Below the pieces are notes generated by a model. That model was not told the origin of the DNA. It did no database searches and was given only the letters and a program-made list of their open reading frames with translations. Of a stretch of 64,000 nt of DNA, positions 3,221-18,473 are shown piece by piece. A program made the translations under genes and the position numbers. This DNA is from an uncultured bacterium (GTDB lineage: Bacteria; Desulfobacterota; Binatia; HRBIN30; CADEER01). Numbering within the stretch: position 1 is the first letter of the stretch; every line of letters begins with the position of its first letter. The stretch is taken from contig CAVWTK010000003.1 of the NCBI GenBank assembly GCA_963757755.1, forward strand, positions 295,825 through 359,824. Direction: 5' to 3'.

Positions 3221-3252
3221 GGCGCCCTCCACCAATCACCGGCGCAGGCTCT

Positions 3253-6200
3253 TCAGCTCCACCGCCGTCTCGCGACCGCGAGCAGCGCCGCGAGCGCACT
3301 GACGACCGCCCACGGCAGCATCGTCGGTGCGGGAGCTGGTCGGCCGACGACGGTCGAGCTGCCGCCGCCGCTGCCGCCGCCCGCGGCATCCCTGATGATC
3401 ACCGTGTTGGTGATCGTCAGCGATTGCGGGTGCGCGTCGACCGTGACGGCAAACAGCAGCGTGCCCATCCCGCCCGACGGGACGTTGGCAACGGCATGCG
3501 TGCACATCGTCCCCGCGGGGCCGCCGTCGAGGCAGGACCAGCCGGGAGTGCCGGCGGCGGCGTTGAAGGTCGTCGAGCCAGGCACCGTCTCCGTGACGAC
3601 GACGCCCGTGGCCGTGCTGCCGCCGGTGTTCGTGTAGGTGATCGTGTAGACCAGCGTGGCGCCGGCCTCGACGAACGGCTCGCTGGTCTTGGTGATCCCC
3701 AGCATCGCCGGTCCGGGCGTAGTGGTGGGTGTGCCCGACGCGGTCGCGGTCGGGGTCGAAGACGTCGTCGGTGTCGCGCTGGCGGTGAGCGTGGCCAACG
3801 GGGTGCTCGTTTCGGTGGTGGTCCGCGTCTGGGTGGCGGTGCCGGTCGCGGTGATGGTGGCCGTGGCGGTGGGGCTGACCAGCGGCGTCGCCGTCGCCGA
3901 CTCGGTCGGCGTCTGACTGGCCGTCGTCGACGGCGTCATGGTGGTTGTACCGGTGGGCGTCCGCGTCGCGGTTGCCGTCGCGCTGAACGTCGCCGTCGCC
4001 GTGACGGTATCGACCGGCGTCGCGGTGGCGGTGCCCGTGTTGACCGGCGTCGCCGTCGGCGTGGACATGAGCGTCGGCGTGAGCGTCGCGGTGTCCGACG
4101 GGGTGGTGGTCGCGGTGGCCGTGGCGGTAGCGGTATCGACCGGCGTGGCCGTGGGCGTGCCGGTGTGCGTCGGGGTGATGGTCGCGGTGGCCGTCGCCGT
4201 CGCGGTATCCACCGGCGTGGCGGTGGGTGTCTCGGTCCCGGTTGATGTAGCCGACGCGGTAGCCGTGGCCGTTGCGGTGAAGGTGGAGGTGGACGTCGCC
4301 GTACCGGTCGCCGTTGGCGTGTCCGTCGCAGTCGGTGTGGCGCTCGCCGTTTCGGTCGGTGTCGCGGTCGCCGTCGGCGTGCTCGTGTGAGTGGCGGTGA
4401 CAGTGTCGGTGGCGGTGCCAGTCGCCGTCGGGGTGACCGTGGCGGTACCGGTGTCGGTCGCCGTCGCCGACGGCGTGTGGGTGGCCGTCGCGGTCTGGGT
4501 GTCCTCTGGTGTCCGCGTGGGCGTGGCCGTCGCCGTGACGGTGGGCGTCTGGGTCACCGTGCCGGTCTGGGTCGCCGTGGCGGTCTGCGTGTTCTCGGGT
4601 GTGCGCGTGGAGGTGGCCGTCGCCGTGGTGCTGGGCGTCTGCGTCACCGTGCCGGTCTGGGTCACCGTGCCGGTTTGGGTCGCCGTGGCGGTCTGGGTGT
4701 TCTCCGGTGTGCGCGTGGACGTCGACGTCGCGGTGGTGCTGGGCGTCTGCGTCACCGTGCCGGTGCGGGTCGCCGTGGCGGTCTGCGTGTTCTCGGGTGT
4801 GCGCGTGGAGGTGGACGTCGCCGATGGTGCTGGGCGTCTGCGTCACCGTGCCGGTCTGGGTCACCGTGCCGGTTTGGGTCGCCGTGGCGGTCTGGGTGTT
4901 CTCGGGTGTGCGCGTGGACGTCGACGTCGCGGTGGTGCTGGGTGTCTGCGTCACCGTGCCGGTCTGGGTCGCCGTGGCGGTCTGGGTGTTCTCGGGTGTG
5001 CGCGTGGACGTCGACGTCGAGGTTGAGTTGGGCGTCTGCGTCACCGTACCGGTGCTGGTCGCCGTGGCGGTGCGCGTGGTCTCGGGCGTGCGCGTCGACG
5101 TCGCGGTGCCGGTGATCGTGATCGTGATGGTCGGAGTAGCGGTGCTGGTCGCCGTGCTGGAGCGCGTCGCGCTCGGCGTCGGGGTCGCGCCGCACAGGCA
5201 CGCGATGCTGCCGGCAAACTCCGGCTGATGTACCTCGCTGGTCGTCGTGAGCGCGCCGACGGCGACCGATCCTTCGATGGGGTTGCTGCCGCTGACCGTC
5301 GCATAGGGTGCGAGCATGGCGCCGTTGAAGTTATGGCTGCCGAGCGCGATCGACGTCGCCGAAGGGAAATTCCACAGCACGTGACTGCGCCACGTCGGAT
5401 CGGTGAACTGCGAGACCATGTTGCCGAACGTCCAGTTCACCGAGGTGCCGGTGACGTTGATGAGGATCGTCGACGCGCTGCCGGGGGCGAGCTCGATCTG
5501 CTGGACGAGCGTGTTCGCGAAGAGCGCGCCAGCGTCCACGGTGAAGACCGCGATGCCGCAGGCGTTGACCTGGCTGACGGTGAAGCGCGCCGGACCCGGT
5601 TGGCCGCTCGGCAACGTGACGGTGTTGTTGGGCGCGATCGCGGCGAGGTACGCCGTCGAGGCCTGGAGCGTCGCCGTCAGCGGGCCGTTGCTGAGCGTCG
5701 GATCGGCGACCGTCGACCCGCCACCGTTGTAGTTGATGATGCGGCCGTTGGTGGAGCCCTTGATGTGCAGGCTGCCGCCCTGAACGTTGATCGGATTGCC
5801 GGCGACGATGTTGCCCACGATCTCGACGGTCGTCTCGGCGGCCGGCACGCCGCCGAGGTGCGCGGCGAGGGTGGAGGAGTTGGCATTGGTGAAGTTGCCG
5901 CCGATGAACGAGCGGCCCTCGACGTCGGAGCTGGTCGAGTAGTCGCCGAGCGTGATCAGGTTGTAGTGCTGCATCGCCGTCGTCAGATCCTGCAGGACGG
6001 AAGCGCAGGGGGCGATGGTCGGCGTCGCCGTGGTGGTTGTCGTCGGCGTGCGCGTGGCGCCGCTGGTGACGGTCACCGTCGGGGTCGCGGTCGCCGTCCC
6101 GGTGCGGCTCGATGTGATGGTCGGTGTCGATGGACAGCCGGCGAGGGAGGTGGCGACGATGCGGACGAGCTCGTCGATCGTCACCTGGTGGTCGCGGTTC

Positions 6201-6385
6201 AGGTCGCCGGGACAACTGCCCTGCGGGCAGCCCTCGAGGGCGAGGTTGACGGCGCTGATGATCTCCTCGATCCGCACCTGACCGTCGCCGTTGAGGTCTC
6301 CGGGGCATTCATCGGCGCGTCCGAGCCCGGGGAGGGGGGCCAGCGCCAACAGCAGAGAGACCAGCAATACCCGCACAACAGCCAC
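3253..6385 (-). CDS. giant secreted surface protein: signal peptide, 2 dockerin-like modules, choice-of-anchor A domain, Thr/Ala/Pro tandem repeats, DUF11 repeat domain, IPTL/PEP-CTERM-like C-terminal anchor; one frameshift
   Basis: The N-terminal part is in ORF 3236..6385: [37 protein letters not shown], and [24 protein letters not shown] (choice-of-anchor A-like). The C-terminal part is in ORF 3253..4755: [28 protein letters not shown] (DUF11-like), ending [26 protein letters not shown]. The frames switch at about 4824 inside the repeats. The GTG start at 6385 is uncertain by a few codons. Confidence 0.8.
4501..5167 (-). repeat. in-gene tandem repeat, 90-bp unit with optional 18-bp sub-repeat ([21 protein letters not shown][GTVTQT]PSTTATSTS)
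   Basis: The GTTCTC landmark recurs at 4591, 4699, 4789, 4898 and 4988, with variants at 4501 and 5078. The spacings are 90, 108, 90, 109, 90 and 90. The 109-bp unit carries one extra A at about 4824 (GCCGATGG versus GCCGTGG in the sister unit), which is exactly the frameshift. Confidence 0.85.
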
Positions 6386-9444: not shown

Positions 9445-10644
9445 TCAACGAGGGTAATGGTATCCGAGATCGACCGGCGACCGATCGCGCGCGCCGTCAG
9501 AAAGTGTGGTGAGCGCCTCGAGGGCGGATTTGAGGGTCTCGCCGATGCGGCCGGAGCCGGCGTCGATGGCGGGGCTGTTCGCTTCGAGGTGGATGTCGCC
9601 GACGTTGGCGTTGACGAACAGGGCGTCGGTGTTCTTGTCGTGATTGCCGCGCAGGGTGGGCGGATTGTAGGCGGTGTGCTGGTCCTCGAGCGCGGGCTGG
9701 TAGACGAGGTTGTAGTCGCCGTCGAAGCCGTTCGGCCCGCCGCTGGCGTCGATCGCGACGCCGGTGCCGTTCTCCTGGAAGATGCAGTTCGTCACGATGG
9801 TGCCGGCGGGCGATGCCCCGCCGCTGGTGCGCAGGGACAACGCGGCGTGGTCGCTCAGGGCGACGGTGTTGTTCGCCAGCTCGGTGCGGTTGGCGGCGCC
9901 GGTGATGAGGATGCCGCGATCGGCCGAGAAGACGAGATTGTTGAACAGCAGGACGTCGCTCGAGCCGTCGATCCGGATGCCGTCCGCCGGCTGGGCGTTG
10001 GCGATGACGCAGTTGCTGATGGTGACGTGGTCCGATCCGCCGCGCACCCGCACGTCGACGGCGCTGGTGGCGGTGGTGGGGGCGACGCCGCGGACGATGA
10101 AGCCGTCGATCGTGACGTACGGCGAGCTGGTGACGATCGCCGCCACGAGGTTGCCGCCGCCGTCGATGATTACGTCGCCGGCGGGATCGCCGGTCGCCGC
10201 GCCGGTGCGGTCGGCGAGAATCTGGACCGGCTGCGCGGCGGTTCCGACGATGTCGGTGACCGTGAGGCGCTCCTGGTACACGCCGCGGCCGACGTGCAGC
10301 GTGCTGCCCGGTGACATCTTCGTCATCGCCTTGGCGAGCGTGCGCAGGGCCTGATCCGGCGCCGTACCCACGTTCTCGTCATTGCCGCTCTGGCGCACGA
10401 AGAGCGTGACGGGCGGGCCCGGCGTCTTGGTCGGGCGCGGCGTGTATGTCGGCCCGCCGGTCTTCGTCGCCGTTCGCGTCGGGCCGCCGGTGCGCGTCGC
10501 CGTGCGCGTCGACTTCGGCGTCCTGGTGGGCGCGTTGGGATCGGGCGTCTTGGTCGCCTTCGGCGAGCTGCTGCTGGTGCTTCCGCAGGCGGCCAGCACC
10601 AGGCACGTCATCACCACCAATCCCGTCAGTCCACGCATGCGCAC
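9445..10644 (-). CDS. lipoprotein with right-handed parallel beta-helix repeats (pectate-lyase fold, DUF1565-like)
   Basis: The lipobox is LVLAAC, followed by a Pro/Thr/Lys-rich linker. Repeated xxNCxI/NNxV beta-helix turns follow (VTISNCVIANA, VLLFNNLVFSA, ELANNTVALS, IVTNCIFQEN). Confidence 0.7.
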   Translation of the reverse strand: MRMRGLTGLVVMTCLVLAACGSTSSSSPKATKTPDPNAPTRTPKSTRTATRTGGPTRTATKTGGPTYTPRPTKTPGPPVTLFVRQSGNDENVGTAPDQALRTLAKAMTKMSPGSTLHVGRGVYQERLTVTDIVGTAAQPVQILADRTGAATGDPAGDVIIDGGGNLVAAIVTSSPYVTIDGFIVRGVAPTTATSAVDVRVRGGSDHVTISNCVIANAQPADGIRIDGSSDVLLFNNLVFSADRGILITGAANRTELANNTVALSDHAALSLRTSGGASPAGTIVTNCIFQENGTGVAIDASGGPNGFDGDYNLVYQPALEDQHTAYNPPTLRGNHDKNTDALFVNANVGDIHLEANSPAIDAGSGRIGETLKSALEALTTLSDGARDRSPVDLGYHYPR

Positions 10645-10760
10645 CTCGGTATCCCCCGACGCTACTCGCGGCGTACGTTGTTTGCCAATGGGAAGCGCAC
10701 CGGTGACCCAGCGAGCCTGGGCGCCAGGTTTTTACGGGCAACGGCGCCCCGGCTGATGGG

Positions 10761-11819
10761 TCACGCCCGTAGCCGCGGATCGGATGACGCGTCGGCGATC
10801 CCCAGCGCGCGGGTCGCCAGCGCGGCGGTCGGGCGGAGCATCCCTTCGAAGCCCTCGCCGAGGGTCTTGCCCTGCAGGTAGCGCGCGTAGATGCCCTCGG
10901 CGATGATGGCGAGCTTGTAGAGTGCCAGCACCTGGTAGAAATCGATCGCGGCGACGTCGCGGCCGCTGGCGCGGGCGTAGGTCTCGACGAGCTCCGCGCG
11001 CCGCAGGAAGCCGGGTTGCTGGGTGAACGGGGAGACGCTGCCGATGCTGGCGGCGTCGATCTGGTCGTCGGGGTCGGCCCAGTAGATGAGCGTGTAGCCG
11101 AGGTCGGACAGCGGGTCGCCGAGCGTCGCCATCTCCCAGTCGAACACCGCGATCACCGTGCCGGGATCGGCGGGGTCGAGGGCGAGGTTCCCGAGACGGA
11201 AATCGCCGTGGACGATCGTCGGCGACGGGGACGTCGGCAGCGCCGCGCGCAGGCGCCCGGCCAGCGTCTCGATCTCCGGCAGCGGCGCGGTCTGCGAGCG
11301 CTCCCACTGCTGGGCCCAGCGCCGCACCTGGCGCTCGAGGTAGCCGTCGGGATGGCCGAACCCTTCGAGGCCGACGGCGCGGTAGTCGATCGCGTGCAAG
11401 TGCACCATCGTGTCGATCATGGCCAGACTGATGCGGCGTCGCGCCTCGGGCGTGTCGGCGTACCCCTCGGGAAGGGCATGCGCGAGCACCACGCCGGGGC
11501 GATATTCCATGACGTAGAAGGGCGCGTCGTTGACGGCGACGTCCTCGCAGAGCGCGATCGGCCGCGCCACCGGCACGTCGGTGTCCGCGAGCGCCGCCAG
11601 CACGCGATACTCGCGCGCCATGTCGTGCGCGGTCGGCAGCACGTGCCCGAGCGGCGGCCGGCGCAACACCCATGATCTTCCGCCGCCCTCGACGAGGTAG
11701 GTGAGGTTCGAACGCCCGCCGCTGATCAGCGAGAAGTCGAGCGCGACGTCGCCGTGCGGCACGTGCGCCGCGAAGAATCGCGACACGTTGGCGGCGTGGA
11801 TTCCCCCGATCTCCGGCAT
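10761..11819 (-). CDS. phosphotransferase family protein (APH/ChoK-like kinase fold, ACAD10/11 N-terminal type)
   Basis: An intact 352-aa ORF. The Brenner motif is IVHGDFRLGNL, followed by FDWEMATLGDPLSDL. Confidence 0.8.
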   Translation of the reverse strand: MPEIGGIHAANVSRFFAAHVPHGDVALDFSLISGGRSNLTYLVEGGGRSWVLRRPPLGHVLPTAHDMAREYRVLAALADTDVPVARPIALCEDVAVNDAPFYVMEYRPGVVLAHALPEGYADTPEARRRISLAMIDTMVHLHAIDYRAVGLEGFGHPDGYLERQVRRWAQQWERSQTAPLPEIETLAGRLRAALPTSPSPTIVHGDFRLGNLALDPADPGTVIAVFDWEMATLGDPLSDLGYTLIYWADPDDQIDAASIGSVSPFTQQPGFLRRAELVETYARASGRDVAAIDFYQVLALYKLAIIAEGIYARYLQGKTLGEGFEGMLRPTAALATRALGIADASSDPRLRA

Positions 11820-13979: not shown

Positions 13980-16550
13980 TTACGGCTTCACGAAATACGT
14001 GCCCAGCAGGAGGAACATCTCGTCCTCCGTGGTGACGCCGCCGTTCAGGGTGCACGCGTCGCAGCTGCCGTCGTTGGCACCGGGGCTCGAGTCGCACGAA
14101 CGATCGCGCGCGTCGTCGGTCGCGCCGCTGCACGGTGCGCCGACCTTGCCGCTGTAGCAGTTCGTCGCCTGCGGGCAGGTCGACGTGCCGAAGGGCGTCG
14201 GCGGCGAGGTGGACTTCCGCTTCACCTTCGTCGGATCCGTGAAGCCGTTGTCGTAGAGGGCGCAGTAGGTCAGCGTGCGCTCCGCCTTGACGCCGGTGAA
14301 GATCTGCGGAGGATCGAAGCGCAGCTCGACGGGATCGTTGTACAGGAAGTTCGTGTACATCAGGCTCGTCATCGGATCGCGGGCATCCGGGGCGGCGCAC
14401 GAGACGCCGTTGGGACATTGCGATGGGCTGAGCGGGTCACACGGGATGACGCCCGCTCCCGAGCAGGTGAACTCGCCGCGGAACGTTCGCCAGCGTTTGC
14501 CGCGCTGGTGCATGTGCGAGGTGAGCTCGAACAGGTTGGCGTTCTTCGGCAGCACGTGGGTGTTGCACACCTCCTGCTGCTGGAACGCCGGCACCGACAT
14601 CTTGAAGATGGCGGTGAGGTCGAAGATGCCGTCGGAGGCGTACAGGCGCTCTGCCGGTTTCGCAAATGTGAAATTGATCCAGGCGCGCAGCAGCCCGTCC
14701 TTGTCGGTCAGGTTGAACGCGTGCGAGTTCCACCAGATCATTCCCTTGAGCGGCACGCAGCGGTACGCGCCGTCGGGGAACGCCGAGCTGGCGTTGGTCT
14801 TCTGGGCACCGGAGAAGGGCACGGCGGCGCGCCCGCCATCGGCGGGACCGAAGCCATTGCAGGCGACCCCGGGCACGATCTTGGTGATGCAGAAGCTGCC
14901 GGCGCCGCAGGCGTCCTTCACGGTCGGATCGCACGTGGCGCCGTCCTGCGCGCCGCCATCGCAGTGGAAGCCGCCCCACGCCGGATCGTCCGGGCCGAAG
15001 GCGCCGGTGTACAGGTTGACGATCAGGTGGTGGCTGAGCGGATCCTGGCGGAGCTGCTCGGCGTTGTAGCAGAAGGTGTCGCCGCCGCCGCGCATCTCCT
15101 CGGGGACCTGGTCCGTGAGGTCGTAGTAGCTCGCGAAGCACACCTCGTGCTCGCTGTGCGCGTTGACGATCCACGGCGGCATCTGGAGCTGGACGCCGTC
15201 CGTCGCCGCCGGAGGATCGAGCGGCTTGATCTCGATCGGCTCGGGCTCGGGCAGGCAGGCGTGCAGCAGATCGCCGACGCCGGACACCGCGCCGTCCTTG
15301 GTCGCGGCGGCGTAGATCCACCGCCGTACCGCTTCGAGCTCGTCCCCGCTCAGGCCGGCCACGTTGCCGAGCGGCATCGGCGTGCCGATGCCGAGCTGCT
15401 CGAAGTCGTACTGGTCGGGCAGCGTCTTCGCGGCGAGCTTCAGGAAGAGCAGGCTCCGCTGCGGATCGCCGGGCTCGATGCGCTTGCGCGCGGGATCGAT
15501 GCTCGACGGGACGTCGATCAACTGCGCGTAGGAGCCGCCGGCGCGCAGGTCGAGGCCGCCGGACTGGGCTTTCCCGTGACAGGCGTCGTTGGTGCAGCCG
15601 TGGTTCTCGAAGATGGCCTTCTGGATCAGATCGTAGGTGGTGGCGAACGCGTCGCACTGCGTGGCGACGCAATCGCTCCGGCAGCCGTCGCCGTCGAAGT
15701 CGTTGCCGTCGTCGCACTCCTCGCCGCGCTCCTGCATACCGTTGCCGCACACCGGCACCGGGCAGGTCACGGCGTCCTGCACGTAGACGAAGCCGACCAT
15801 GCAGCCGGCCTGCGCGGCGATGCGGCCGAGGAAGTCGTCGGTGCTGCGGCGGTACGCGTCGGTGAAGGCGGTCTCGGGACACGTGGCGGCGATCGCGGCG
15901 GTGCTCTGGGCCTGGGCGCGCGCGATGCGGGCCCGGGCCCAGTCGACGAGGCGGGATTTCTGCTGCGCGGTCTGGCCGGTGCCGGCGATGCGGTCGAGCG
16001 CCTGCTGATAGGTGCGCATCGCGTAGCGCAGCAGTCGCGTCGACTCGCGCGCGCCGGCCTGCACGCACGCCGCCTTGCCCGGGTCGACGCTGGCGACGGT
16101 GCCGCCGATCATGACGGGGGCGAAGGCGGCGCTCATCGCCGCCGTGTCGAGCTGACGGCACGCGTCGGTGACGTCCTTCTGCGCGTCCTGCAGGTCGATG
16201 TAGCCGAGGTTCTGCAGTTGGTTGACGGTGCAGGAGCGCTGCAGCCGGTCGAGCGCGCGCTGGCGCGCGTCGGTGACGTCGGCGTCGAGGGCGGTCTCGT
16301 CGCACGCCCCGCCGTTCAGGGCGGCGCCGAGGCAGTTGCCGCGCAGCAGGGCGACGCGGGCGATGCACACCGAGGTGGCACGGCTCAGCACGCGCTGGCA
16401 GCGCGCGGCGTCAGCCGGGAACGGACCCCAGAACGCGAGCTCGGCCGGCTGGCCGTGCGCCCACGCCGTGCCGGTCGTCAGGCCGATGATCAGGGCCAGC
16501 AGCGTTCCGCGAAGTCGCGCTGTCACGAATGTCCTCGTCCCCCGGAGCAT
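13980..16550 (-). CDS. secreted multidomain protein: Cys-containing helical N-domain, Cys-rich repeat, PSCyt1-like motif, PHM/DBH-like two-copper monooxygenase-like C-terminal half
   Basis: An intact ORF. The signal peptide is MLRGTRTFVTARLRGTLLALIIGLTTGTAWA (start taken at 16550). Domains in order: VCGNGMQERGEECDDGNDFDGDGCRSDC, then IFENHGCTNDACHGKAQSGGLDL..MPLG..LSGDELEAVRRWI. The C-terminal half then has LSHHLIV, WNSHAFN, TSHMHQRGKRW and TTEDEMFLLLGTYF, in the order of the PHM CuH (HH..H) and CuM (HxH..M) ligands. Confidence 0.75.
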   Translation of the reverse strand: MLRGTRTFVTARLRGTLLALIIGLTTGTAWAHGQPAELAFWGPFPADAARCQRVLSRATSVCIARVALLRGNCLGAALNGGACDETALDADVTDARQRALDRLQRSCTVNQLQNLGYIDLQDAQKDVTDACRQLDTAAMSAAFAPVMIGGTVASVDPGKAACVQAGARESTRLLRYAMRTYQQALDRIAGTGQTAQQKSRLVDWARARIARAQAQSTAAIAATCPETAFTDAYRRSTDDFLGRIAAQAGCMVGFVYVQDAVTCPVPVCGNGMQERGEECDDGNDFDGDGCRSDCVATQCDAFATTYDLIQKAIFENHGCTNDACHGKAQSGGLDLRAGGSYAQLIDVPSSIDPARKRIEPGDPQRSLLFLKLAAKTLPDQYDFEQLGIGTPMPLGNVAGLSGDELEAVRRWIYAAATKDGAVSGVGDLLHACLPEPEPIEIKPLDPPAATDGVQLQMPPWIVNAHSEHEVCFASYYDLTDQVPEEMRGGGDTFCYNAEQLRQDPLSHHLIVNLYTGAFGPDDPAWGGFHCDGGAQDGATCDPTVKDACGAGSFCITKIVPGVACNGFGPADGGRAAVPFSGAQKTNASSAFPDGAYRCVPLKGMIWWNSHAFNLTDKDGLLRAWINFTFAKPAERLYASDGIFDLTAIFKMSVPAFQQQEVCNTHVLPKNANLFELTSHMHQRGKRWRTFRGEFTCSGAGVIPCDPLSPSQCPNGVSCAAPDARDPMTSLMYTNFLYNDPVELRFDPPQIFTGVKAERTLTYCALYDNGFTDPTKVKRKSTSPPTPFGTSTCPQATNCYSGKVGAPCSGATDDARDRSCDSSPGANDGSCDACTLNGGVTTEDEMFLLLGTYFVKP

Positions 16551-16646
16551 ACGATTGCATACCGGCGGGGGAGTGCTGTGACAAGAAGTCACCGGGCAAA
16601 CGGTTGATTTCCAAGGCCGAAACGCACCGCCGGCCGGCCTCGCGCG

Positions 16647-18197
16647 CTAGATCTTCGGGACGATGCGGTAGAGCTCGCCGCCGTAGTCGACGATGTACAG
16701 CTCGCCGCGCGCATCCTCGCCGAAGCTCACCACCGAGTCGATGGTCAGGCCGCCGCCGGGGGCCAGCGCCTTCGTACGATCCTCGAGCCCTGTCACGATG
16801 CCGTTCTCGTAGGCGAAGGTACGGATGAACGGCGTGCAGTAGTCGCTGAAAAAGTACTGCCCGCGGAGGTCGGGCAGGGCGCAACCGCGGTAGACGTAGC
16901 CGCCGGTGATCGAGCAGGGCCTGCCCTCGTCGCTGTGCGAATAGTCGAGGATCGGCGGTGTGAACGGCGCCACCTGTTCGGGGCACTGGTTGGTGCCCGG
17001 TGGCGGCTCGTGACAGGTCGCGCCCTCGAAGACGTCCCAGCCGAAGTTGGTGCCGCCCGGGCTTCCGGCGGGGAGGAAATCGATCTCCTCGCGGCGGTTC
17101 TGGCCGACGTCGGCGATGTAGAGGTCGCCGGTGAGGCGATCGAAGGCATAGCGCCAGGGATTGCGCACGCCCTTCGCCCAGATCAGTCCGAGCGGCGCGC
17201 CCTCGCCGGCGCGCGGATTGTCGGGCGGCACGTGGTAGTAGCGGCCGCTGGCCTCGGCCTCGGCGTCATCGACGTCGACGTCGAGCCGCAGCATCTTGGC
17301 GAGCAGCGTCTGGTCGTTCTGGCCGTTGCCGTTCGGATCGTCCTGACTGCCGCCGTCGCCCATGCCGACGAACATCGTGCCGTCGGGGGCGAAGGCGAGC
17401 AGGCCGCCGTTGTGGTTCGCGAACGGCTGGAGAATGGTCAGCAGGATCTTCTCGCTGTCGGGATCGGCGACGTCGGGATCGGCGCTGACGGTGTAGCGGG
17501 CGATGACGGTGTCGCCGTGGGTGTTGGTGTAGTCGACGAAGAAGCGGCCATTGTGCTCGTAGTCGGGATGGAAGGCGATGCTGAGCAGGCCGCGCTCGCC
17601 GCAGCAGCTGACGCGTTCATGGATGTCGAGGAAGGGCGTGTCGAGTTTGACGCCGTCCTTGATGATGCGGATGGTGCCGAACTGCTCGACGACGAAGAGG
17701 CGGTGCGGATCGAGCCGCGGCGCGCCGGCGAACACCGGCAGCGACAGCCCGTCCGTCACCAGCACCGACGTCAGTGCCGCACCGGGAAACGCGGCGACGC
17801 CGGCGCACGGATTGCCGCCCGGCTCGAGCTGGCAGGCGGCGTCGCAGCCGTCGCCGGCGACCTGGTTGCCGTCGTCGCACTCCTCGTCGGGATCCGCGGT
17901 GCCGTCGCCGCAGTGCAGTGGCCCGGGCGTGACCGAGGGCGTCGCCGTCGGCGTCGCGTCGGCACACCCGTTGAGCGCCGCGTCGACCCCGGCGATCAGC
18001 TCCTGGATCGCCACCTGCCCGTCGCCGTCGATGTCGGCCGCCGCGCAGCGATCCGTGCCCGCACTGCCGAGCGCGATCTCGACGCCGAGCACCAGCTCGT
18101 TGATCCCCACCGTCCCGTCACCGTCGCAATCGCTCGGACAGGCCCGGGCCGACAGCGGCGCGAGCAGAACGAGCAGGACGAGCGCGCGGGGAAGCAT
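16647..18197 (-). CDS. secreted PQQ-dependent sugar dehydrogenase (soluble glucose/sorbosone dehydrogenase family) with 2 dockerin-like modules and a Cys-rich repeat
   Basis: The start is MLPRALVLLVLLAPLSARA (ATG 18197). The modules are CPSDCDGDGTVGINELV, DIDGDGQVAIQELI and HCGDGTADPDEECDDGNQVAGDGCDAAC. The beta-propeller body has RGLLSIAFHPDY, HNGGLLAFAPDG, GVRNPWRYAFD and GDLYIADVGQNRREEID. Confidence 0.85.
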   Translation of the reverse strand: MLPRALVLLVLLAPLSARACPSDCDGDGTVGINELVLGVEIALGSAGTDRCAAADIDGDGQVAIQELIAGVDAALNGCADATPTATPSVTPGPLHCGDGTADPDEECDDGNQVAGDGCDAACQLEPGGNPCAGVAAFPGAALTSVLVTDGLSLPVFAGAPRLDPHRLFVVEQFGTIRIIKDGVKLDTPFLDIHERVSCCGERGLLSIAFHPDYEHNGRFFVDYTNTHGDTVIARYTVSADPDVADPDSEKILLTILQPFANHNGGLLAFAPDGTMFVGMGDGGSQDDPNGNGQNDQTLLAKMLRLDVDVDDAEAEASGRYYHVPPDNPRAGEGAPLGLIWAKGVRNPWRYAFDRLTGDLYIADVGQNRREEIDFLPAGSPGGTNFGWDVFEGATCHEPPPGTNQCPEQVAPFTPPILDYSHSDEGRPCSITGGYVYRGCALPDLRGQYFFSDYCTPFIRTFAYENGIVTGLEDRTKALAPGGGLTIDSVVSFGEDARGELYIVDYGGELYRIVPKI

Positions 18198-18325: not shown

Positions 18326-18473
18326 CACCGCCAAGGGCGCCAGGAAACGCCAAGGACGCCAACGGCGAGCGCGATCATACGCTCGTGACGGCTGAGCCCC
18401 TCAGCAACGAGGTCGAACGAAAGGCAGCCGAGGCACTGCTCGGCTTGCCGCCCTTGGCGTCCTTGGCGGTTCG
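18326..18473. repeat. REP-like hairpin (CCAAGGRCG units) with long loop
   Basis: The left arm is caccgccaagggcgccaggaaacgccaaggacgccaacggc. The right arm is gccgcccttggcgtccttggcggttcg. The loop holds a small gctgag/ctcagc hairpin. Confidence 0.7.

Follow-up and report, generated by a model that had tools for sequence, protein, structure and literature searches.

Here we describe two adjacent genes on the minus strand of a 64,000-nucleotide stretch of DNA (the window) from contig CAVWTK010000003.1 of an uncultured member of the Binatia. One encodes an exported multidomain protein of 856 amino acids (the large protein) and the other an exported beta-propeller protein of the GSDH family (the GSDH protein). 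Structure prediction, profile searches and comparison with relatives suggest that the large protein is rather likely to be a haem-wired two-copper monooxygenase resembling peptidylglycine alpha-hydroxylating monooxygenase (PHM) and dopamine beta-monooxygenase (DBH). The two genes, the spacer between them and the hairpin that precedes them are as follows.

13980..16550, minus strand: large gene, for an exported 856-aa multidomain protein with a signal peptide, a helical Cys-rich domain, a DUF4215 repeat, a cytochrome-c-like module and a PHM/DBH-like core
16551..16646, minus strand: intergenic spacer from the GSDH stop codon to the ATG of the large gene, 96 bp, without a terminator-like site
16647..18197, minus strand: GSDH gene, for an exported 516-aa six-bladed beta-propeller protein of the HHIP-like branch (PF07995, E 7.2e-32)
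18424..18445, minus strand: terminator-like hairpin 5' of the GSDH gene, after a CoA-transferase gene (consensus match only)

Both open reading frames (ORFs) are intact in this window of ~70% G+C, as a preliminary description of the DNA had stated. The GSDH frame reads 516 aa from its ATG, within a longer ORF that extends to 18362, and the large frame reads 856 aa from its ATG or 870 aa from a GTG at 16592. The ATG at 16550 fits both the alignment and the lengths of the orthologues (850-863 aa); the gap of 54 bp reported earlier holds only with the GTG start, and with the ATG the genes lie 96 bp apart. No terminator-like site was detected between them, and the hairpin precedes both, a layout that would suit joint transcription of the two genes without demonstrating it; the count of terminator-like matches is not above shuffle expectation. 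Two further points of the preliminary description stand, namely the Sec-like N-termini, seen on inspection in both proteins (MLRGTRTFVTARLRGTLLALIIGLTTGTAWA before HG in the large protein and MLPRALVLLVLLAPLSARA before C in the GSDH protein), and the shared Myxococcus-type Cys-rich repeat, for which DUF4215 and TIGR02232 give significant matches in both.

The large protein can be divided into the following parts.

16458..16550, minus strand: predicted Sec signal peptide, residues 1-31, ending in TGTAWA before HG (by inspection; a low-confidence N-terminal helix in the model)
15783..16448, minus strand: all-helical Cys-containing domain, residues ~35-256 (helices 46-256 in the AlphaFold2 model)
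15669..15803, minus strand: DUF4215/myxo_disulf_rpt acidic Cys-rich repeat, residues 250-294 (PF13948 E 4.5e-9; TIGR02232 E 7.6e-7)
15255..15665, minus strand: cytochrome-c-like (PSCyt1-type) module, residues 296-432 (C319-x4-C324-H325, M392-P393, weak profile matches)
15576..15596, minus strand: putative site of haem-c attachment, C319-T-N-D-A-C324-H325 (invariant in two alignments, 45 of 45 and 32 of 32 sequences)
15372..15377, minus strand: M392-P393, putative distal (axial) Met ligand (invariant; pairs with the axial Met in the 'MPA' of cytochrome c6 and of SorU-type cytochromes)
14631..15254, minus strand: PHM-like N-terminal beta-sandwich, residues ~433-640 (putative CuH site H507, H508, H610; subdomain boundary approximate)
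13983..14630, minus strand: PHM-like C-terminal beta-sandwich, residues ~641-856 (putative CuM site H679, H681, M845)

An AlphaFold2 model of the whole protein was built with an alignment of 45 sequences (A1, identity down to 43%), itself drawn from at least 395 homologues, and reached a mean predicted local distance difference test score (pLDDT) of 89.5 and a predicted TM score of 0.82. The protein contains 38 Cys, many of them invariant, and as modelled it is probably an exported, disulfide-rich redox enzyme.

The predicted copper core and the module fused to it

In the predicted structure only, the C-terminal ~425 residues of the large protein adopt the fold of the PHM/DBH catalytic core, which consists of two eight-stranded beta-sandwiches. 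A Foldseek search of the model against the PDB returned human DBH or rat PHM as all of its top 28 matches, each with probability 1.00, at E-values from 8.5e-9 (4zel, DBH) to 1.1e-5 and target-normalised TM scores of 0.34-0.58 (0.58 for the PHM entry 1sdw and 0.54 for 1phm), which bears out the structural resemblance to these enzymes that had been proposed from sequence motifs. The next class of matches, comprising viral double-jelly-roll capsids and PNGase F-like proteins, appears at E > 2e-4 and with probabilities below 0.7.

The preliminary description had picked candidate copper ligands by eye, and all of the motifs on which it drew (LSHHLIV, WNSHAF, TSHMHQRGKRW and TTEDEMFLLLGTYF in the core, and IFENHGCTNDACHGK...GGLDL...MPLG...WI in the segment before it) are present in the translation. 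The PHM motifs with which it compared them are correct: H107, H108, H172, H242, H244 and M314 of rat PHM fall within them, and the rat PHM core used for the comparison is identical to PDB chain 4e4z_A at 254 of 255 residues. Residues 430-856 of the large protein contain ten His and eight Met, and across alignment A1 the invariant His are exactly H507, H508, H610, H679 and H681, with M845 invariant as well. The five His chosen earlier are the five that are invariant among the ten, for which the chance is about 1 in 252; since the choice had been made from motif resemblance alone, this conservation constitutes independent support. A second set, made up of 150 representatives of 50%-identity clusters from a library of 1.84 billion proteins, gives the same picture: H507 and H508 are each kept in 111 of 116 representatives, H610 in 129 of 132, H679 in 128 of 130, H681 in 126 of 132 and M845 in 111 of 112. 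The six proposed ligands are thus 95-99% conserved, and the other five His and seven Met of the core vary (M457, for example, is kept in 35 of 105 and H465 in 15 of 106).

The context of these residues also resembles that of PHM. Local hhalign alignments, in themselves non-significant, pair H507/H508 with PHM H107/H108, H679-x-H681-xx-GK with H242-x-H244-xx-GK, and GG-TT-EDEM845 with GG-SS-DEM314, so that the two proteins have in common a His-His pair with hydrophobic residues, an H-x-H-xx-GK motif and a GG-[ST][ST]-x-DEM motif. In PHM, R240, N316 and Y318 hold the carboxylate and backbone of the peptide substrate. The matching positions of the large protein in the motif alignments are T, L and L, and since these residues are not kept, the substrate is probably not a glycine-extended peptide; we accordingly set peptidylglycine aside as a candidate.

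The core is preceded by a module in which G-C319-x4-C324-H325, GGLDL and M392-P393 are invariant or nearly so. Among the 87 modules found in the 150 representatives, the putative haem motif is C-x4-CH in 77 and has a spacing of six in one, and the remaining nine carry the canonical CxxCH at the same column, as expected of a haem attachment site. The order of elements (helix, C-x-CH, Met, helix) is that of class I cytochromes c, with M392-P393 followed by a helix at residues 402-413. Searched against the PDB, the module profile gave nine weak matches (E 0.08-1.3), among them six class I cytochromes c as well as the haem region of hydrazine synthase alpha; the three alignments shown (cytochromes c6 and 4pw9_B) place the MP and the following helix on the axial-Met segment. 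Weak matches to PSCyt1 occur in 4 of the 45 members of A1, and weak matches to the haem region of fatty-acid cis/trans isomerase (CTI, PF06934), on the MP...WI segment, in 13 of the 45. One relative of 944 aa, P0128, carries two tandem cytochrome-like modules ahead of its PHM-like core, each with C-x4-CH, and is the sole member seen to reach the PSCyt1 gathering score (22.1 bits against 22). The planctomycete-cytochrome-like segment of the preliminary description is supported as a PSCyt1/class-I-like module, with an invariant C-x4-CH and MP, in front of the core.

This arrangement is a nearly constant feature of the family: of 82 complete representatives, 80 have the module immediately before the PHM-like core. 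A true exception is P0125; P0145 and P0192, which at first appeared to be cytochrome-less forms, proved to be N-terminally truncated gene calls starting inside the module. The conserved functional unit is the cytochrome-c-like module plus the PHM/DBH-like two-copper core.

The N-terminal part of the large protein is less constant. Its helical domain has no Pfam or PDB match. At the locus L029 the helical domain and DUF4215 repeat form a separate secreted protein of 305 aa (9917-10834), whose gene lies directly downstream of one for a signal peptide, cytochrome module and PHM-like core, and the same separation is probable at L021, L044 and L061. L029 shares its rsmD...argJ-secA context with P0027, an orthologue in which the parts are fused, and such a fusion/fission pair identifies the helical domain as a functional partner. 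The helical domain and DUF4215 repeat are thus an optional accessory part, which can be a separate protein in relatives. Other family members lack this part, or have additions in the form of dockerin-like inserts, further DUF4215 repeats, a TIG domain or a PQQ-repeat propeller.

The family itself is large within this lineage. In the library of 1.84 billion representatives the PHM-like profile detects no more than 620 clusters at E <= 1e-3, and it detects 415 loci in 185,579 species genomes, most of them in metagenome-assembled genomes (MAGs) labelled Candidatus Binatia, 'Deltaproteobacteria bacterium' or simply 'bacterium'; the few oddly labelled host genomes are probably binning artefacts. 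For the study of gene neighbourhoods 80 of the 415 loci were kept, to which single MAGs supply three to four each. Tandem copies of the cytochrome plus PHM-like gene lie side by side at L039, L046, L075 and L085 (7001-9457 and 9653-12184 in the last). Paralogues otherwise stand alone among unrelated housekeeping genes, which speaks for a self-sufficient enzyme, and clustering of ORFs across the 80 loci found no neighbour in more than eight of them, a result confounded by antisense ORFs at 70% GC. Members are named in databases as 'DUF4215 domain-containing protein', 'cysteine-rich repeat protein' or 'hypothetical protein', and literature searches, of limited reach, brought up neither a bacterial enzyme of the PHM/DBH type nor a form fused to a cytochrome. 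The family is apparently undescribed and previously unnamed, bacterial, and centred on the Binatia.

The GSDH-family neighbour

The product of the upstream gene belongs to the GSDH family, with a score for PF07995 of 111.4 bits against a cutoff of 25. Two modules precede its propeller.

17964..18140, minus strand: dockerin-like/EF-hand-like Ca-binding repeat pair, residues ~20-78 of the GSDH protein (EF-hand_1 E 9e-4)
17817..17915, minus strand: DUF4215/myxo_disulf_rpt repeat, residues 95-127 of the GSDH protein (TIGR02232 E 2.6e-11; PF13948 E 4.5e-6)

Family membership is as the preliminary description had it, but its 'clear PQQ sugar dehydrogenase', where PQQ is pyrroloquinoline quinone, is too strong. 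The closest solved relative is the Hedgehog-interacting protein (HHIP; E 1.7e-30), ahead of the structurally characterised PQQ glucose and aldose dehydrogenases (E 5e-11 to 1e-7); in a sequence search of the PDB the C-terminal half matches HHIP only, and membership of TIGR03606 fails, the score being 38.7 bits where the cutoff is 434.55. The propeller of HHIP has the GSDH fold, and we know of no evidence that HHIP uses PQQ. Retained in the GSDH protein are the His of 'NHNGG' and, where HHIP has 'LHDP', the Arg-Asn of 'VRNP', residues that we take to be the catalytic His144 and the PQQ-contacting Arg228/Asn229 of soluble glucose dehydrogenase (sGDH). Judged from these residues, use of PQQ by the GSDH protein is plausible.

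Relatives of the GSDH protein form a very large family in the Binatia with the same DUF4215, dockerin and EF-hand decorations. One database entry (P0388, 516 aa) is 100% identical to the window product over the 382 propeller residues queried, Dockerin_1 (PF00404) is annotated in the precomputed records of P0478, P0501 and P0506, and bacterial relatives are automatically named 'PQQ-dependent sugar dehydrogenase'. Cytochrome fusions were absent from the top 120 clusters of GSDH relatives. The dockerin-like/EF-hand-like module of ~60 aa recurs in many secreted proteins of the lineage: it is N-terminal in the GSDH protein (17964-18140) and in a 1049-aa pAdhesive_15 protein of the window (ORF 3236-6385; module at 6131-6307, minus strand), and in many paralogues it interrupts the C-terminal sandwich of the PHM-like core (for example L029, 7047-9920). 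Its recurrence hints at a common anchoring scaffold.

The preliminary description proposed that the two genes may form a functional pair; in this model the GSDH enzyme would oxidise a sugar with PQQ and reduce the haem module of the hydroxylating copper enzyme, a bacterial analogue of the AA12 pyranose dehydrogenase or of cellobiose dehydrogenase (CDH) driving lytic polysaccharide monooxygenases (LPMOs). We compared 11 orthologue contexts besides the window, at 58-83% identity.

GSDH gene adjacent (directly upstream, same strand), seven contexts: L081 (80% identity), L082 (77%), P0020 (66%), L002 (67%), L003 (~70%), L089 (65%), L090 (65%)
GSDH gene near but interrupted, two contexts: L091 (75%), with a 426-aa opposite-strand gene between; L001 (67%), with ~7 kb between, including a nucleoside phosphorylase and a P-type ATPase
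GSDH gene absent, two contexts: P0015 (68%), P0027 (58%)

Co-location is thus found in part of the orthologue group and is missing beyond it, since at paralogue loci (below ~55% identity) an adjacent GSDH gene occurs in 0 of 76, with one distant homologue on the other strand, and four further paralogue contexts have no GSDH gene and only unrelated housekeeping neighbours.

Several observations favour a functional pair: the genes share a strand, a 96-bp gap and the terminator pattern described above; adjacency persists in contexts of only 65-80% identity, among them L089, where the upstream neighbour has changed, and L090, where the pair is kept despite a quite different upstream flank (kdsB, pyrG, kdsA), which argues for some cohesion; and the GSDH protein keeps the NHNGG His and VRNP Arg-Asn. 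A distant relative of 1249 aa, P0167, even joins a DUF4215 repeat, cytochrome module and PHM-like core to a PQQ_2/PQQ-repeat propeller (residues ~795-1249, PF13360 E 2.4e-30). There are also precedents for cytochrome-bearing electron supply to LPMOs, in that a PQQ-dependent AA12 enzyme with a cytochrome domain drives an LPMO (PMC5960967) and CjX183, a c-type cytochrome domain of Cellvibrio Cbp2D, reduces bacterial LPMOs (PMC8981238). Against this, adjacency is lost even among orthologues and is found at none of the ~76 paralogue loci or four further contexts, and outside L090 much of it lies inside whole-block synteny that also retains the unrelated BKACE, APH and amidohydrolase genes. Both families are expanded and multi-copy in this lineage, so that two members could more easily have become neighbours by chance and been passed on as such within a subclade; a single origin of the arrangement, followed by slow decay, is therefore enough to explain the pattern. 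The HHIP-like affinity and the TIGR03606 score count against the pair as well, as do the lack of cytochrome fusions among the top 120 GSDH relatives and the fact that the P0167 propeller is of the PQQ_2/BamB type, a different family from GSDH. The DUF4215 and dockerin-like modules common to the two proteins were rejected as evidence for a pair, being present in many unrelated secreted proteins of the lineage. Taken together, we regard a dedicated pair as possible but unlikely. The GSDH propeller is a lineage-specific neighbour outside the conserved unit, and it is the fused cytochrome module, not the GSDH gene, that invariably accompanies the copper core.

Other genes around the pair are unrelated to it. 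On one flank lie genes for BKACE, an amidohydrolase, an APH-family kinase, a beta-helix lipoprotein and GDPD, and on the other a family III CoA-transferase gene (18519-20881, minus strand) that is split over three frames with breaks near 19987 and 19260. An intact 787-aa orthologue of the CoA-transferase in L081 is 83%, 73% and 82% identical to the three pieces, and the split represents either a pseudogene or assembly indels. Farther along are two secreted-looking ORFs on the minus strand, an Lcl_C (DUF1566) protein with a dockerin-like segment (21081-22217) and a short, possibly truncated FGE-sulfatase-domain ORF of 234 aa that covers part of the Pfam model (22293-22997). In several orthologues (L089 6708-8132, L090 9329-10498, and the P0020 and P0015 contexts) the large gene is directly followed on the same strand by a gene for a secreted protein of ~370-475 aa with an N-terminal 'LxPxKDNTIF...RALLAF' region and a C-terminal dockerin-like module; this gene is missing from the window, where BKACE on the other strand follows the large gene.

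Haem and copper assignments weighed

That the large protein binds haem and copper, which way electrons flow through it and that it acts as a monooxygenase are all inferred, and a number of results weigh against these assignments. In HMM searches of the large protein itself, neither Cu2_monoox (PF01082) nor Cu2_monoox_C (PF03712) nor PSCyt1 (PF07635) was matched at E <= 1, so that the domain memberships that the preliminary description proposed to check are not borne out for this protein at the sequence level. NCBIfam adds nothing beyond DUF4215/TIGR02232. Sequence searches of the PDB, by phmmer with the single protein and by hmmsearch with the 45-sequence profile, returned nothing relevant; profile-profile comparison by hhalign with a 28-sequence PHM family gave a probability of 0.6%, and a global hhalign of the core profile against rat PHM gave no meaningful alignment. 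In the local alignment H610 does not pair cleanly with PHM H172, whereas the other five ligands pair with their counterparts. Across the 45 members scanned, PF01082 was never matched, and three showed sub-threshold matches to Cu2_monoox_C (best 15.1 bits against a cutoff of 23); the one examined in detail, in P0105, falls on the HxH segment. The claim of homology to PHM and DBH consequently rests on predicted structure and motifs, and the family is recognisable only by structure and ligand pattern. It follows that standard annotation, finding no Pfam, NCBIfam or PDB sequence match, would have rejected the idea of a PHM-like enzyme. On the haem side, C-x4-CH is a non-canonical motif, and a Foldseek search of the isolated module model (pLDDT 90.3) against the PDB gave no match below E 2.8. 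Finally, gene context gives no hint of a substrate.

The points on the haem side would fit a module that is free of haem, in which C319 and C324 form a disulfide or a metal site, the module is structural and the copper is reduced by small molecules. The unusual motif, the empty fold search, the lack of a Pfam cytochrome match in the large protein and its abundance of Cys, which makes disulfides plausible, all lend themselves to this explanation. However, it does not account for the invariance of both H325, which follows the second Cys, and the Met of MP, for the nine relatives with a canonical CxxCH at the same column, or for the PSCyt1 score of P0128. Haem c proteins, for the most part class I cytochromes c, also make up almost all of the weak PDB matches, with the Met paired. 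C-x4-CH attachment of haem occurs in some tetrahaem cytochromes c3, and apo models of small haem domains make poor queries for fold searches. We therefore consider a haem-free module improbable.

Still a little less probable is a PHM-like domain that is no monooxygenase, whether it binds copper or transfers electrons in some other chemistry (as an oxidase, or in the handling of copper) or is a jelly-roll of the PHM/PNGase F superfamily that serves for binding without catalysis, since the absence of sequence-level Cu2_monoox membership, the presence of double-jelly-roll proteins, PNGase F-like ones among them, further down the list of fold matches, the lack of a substrate or pathway context and the loss of the PHM substrate-binding residues are outweighed by complete His3 and His2Met patterns held at 95-99% while other His and Met drift, by a lead of DBH and PHM over other folds of more than four orders of magnitude in E-value, and by the conserved Met in a DEM motif identical to that of PHM and the permanently fused redox module, neither of which pure binding would explain.

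Proposed electron route and relation to known systems

Based on the predicted fold and the conserved residues, we favour a haem-wired two-copper monooxygenase that would work as follows. C319-x4-C324-H325 would hold haem c, whose sixth ligand would be M392. The haem would be reduced, one electron at a time, by an external donor in the periplasm or outside the cell; in the subclade of the window this donor may be the GSDH propeller. The haem would then pass electrons to the CuH-like site (H507, H508, H610), in the role that ascorbate plays in the animal enzymes, and the CuM-like site (H679, H681, M845) would bind O2 and hydroxylate a C-H bond of an extracytoplasmic substrate.

The nearest functional relatives would be PHM, DBH and tyramine beta-monooxygenase (TBM), which resemble the large protein in the predicted two-beta-sandwich fold, in the order and motif context of the ligand sets, and in being disulfide-rich and exported. 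The large protein differs from them in having no significant sequence similarity to PHM or DBH; in its larger size; in the spacing of its ligand blocks, 102 and 164 residues apart owing to Cys-rich insertions as opposed to 64 and 70 in PHM; and in not keeping the residues that hold the substrate carboxylate in PHM. It is moreover bacterial and carries a c-type cytochrome-like module upstream of the core, whereas PHM depends on ascorbate and DBH has a DOMON domain at its N-terminus, the latter a loose parallel to a built-in protein donor. To our knowledge, every characterised enzyme of the PHM/DBH/TBM class is eukaryotic. These enzymes are ascorbate-dependent, and the route by which electrons reach CuH and then cross a cleft of ~11 A to CuM is debated.

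The module follows the pattern of PSCyt1 (PF07635) and of the haem region of CTI (PF06934), namely helix - C..CH - GGLDL - PG..S.L - MP - L..EE...L..WI. It departs from both in the C-x4-CH of most members, including the large protein, which matches neither model, and in its partner, here a PHM-like core and not a PSD1/DUF1553-type or isomerase domain. The GSDH protein, for its part, resembles the family of sGDH, Asd/YliI and HHIP in its match to PF07995, but stands nearer to HHIP than to the PQQ enzymes and has additional N-terminal dockerin-like and DUF4215 modules. In concept, the closest parallels are the AA12 (with AA8 cytochrome b) and CDH systems that serve LPMOs, and CjX183, in all of which an extracytoplasmic dehydrogenase and/or cytochrome supplies single electrons to a secreted copper monooxygenase. 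In contrast to the AA12 and CDH systems, the cytochrome here is fused to the oxygenase and not to the dehydrogenase, and the link to a dehydrogenase consists of gene adjacency at the level of a subclade; the oxygenase, unlike an LPMO, is PHM-like with two putative Cu sites and has no histidine brace.

The Binatia, an uncultured lineage, are known for their metabolism of hydrocarbons and C1 compounds. A broader proposal, which we advance tentatively and hold to be doubtful, is that the Binatia possess an expanded set of self-sufficient, non-coupled two-copper monooxygenases, structural counterparts of PHM and DBH in which a fused haem c at an unusual C-x4-CH site replaces ascorbate, and that in the subclade described here the enzyme is co-expressed with a PQQ-type GSDH protein, resulting in sugar-driven hydroxylation of C-H bonds outside the cytoplasm. 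If the link to the GSDH protein is real, it would amount to an equivalent, in bacteria and with other components, of the fungal dehydrogenase-cytochrome-LPMO relay. If the large protein is a haem-wired two-copper monooxygenase, the PHM/DBH class would extend deep into the bacteria, beyond the reach of current sequence models, and the several diverged paralogues per genome would be candidate catalysts for C-H hydroxylation. Since a haem donor can be followed optically, such an enzyme would also provide a tractable, ascorbate-independent system for studying electron transfer between CuH and CuM.

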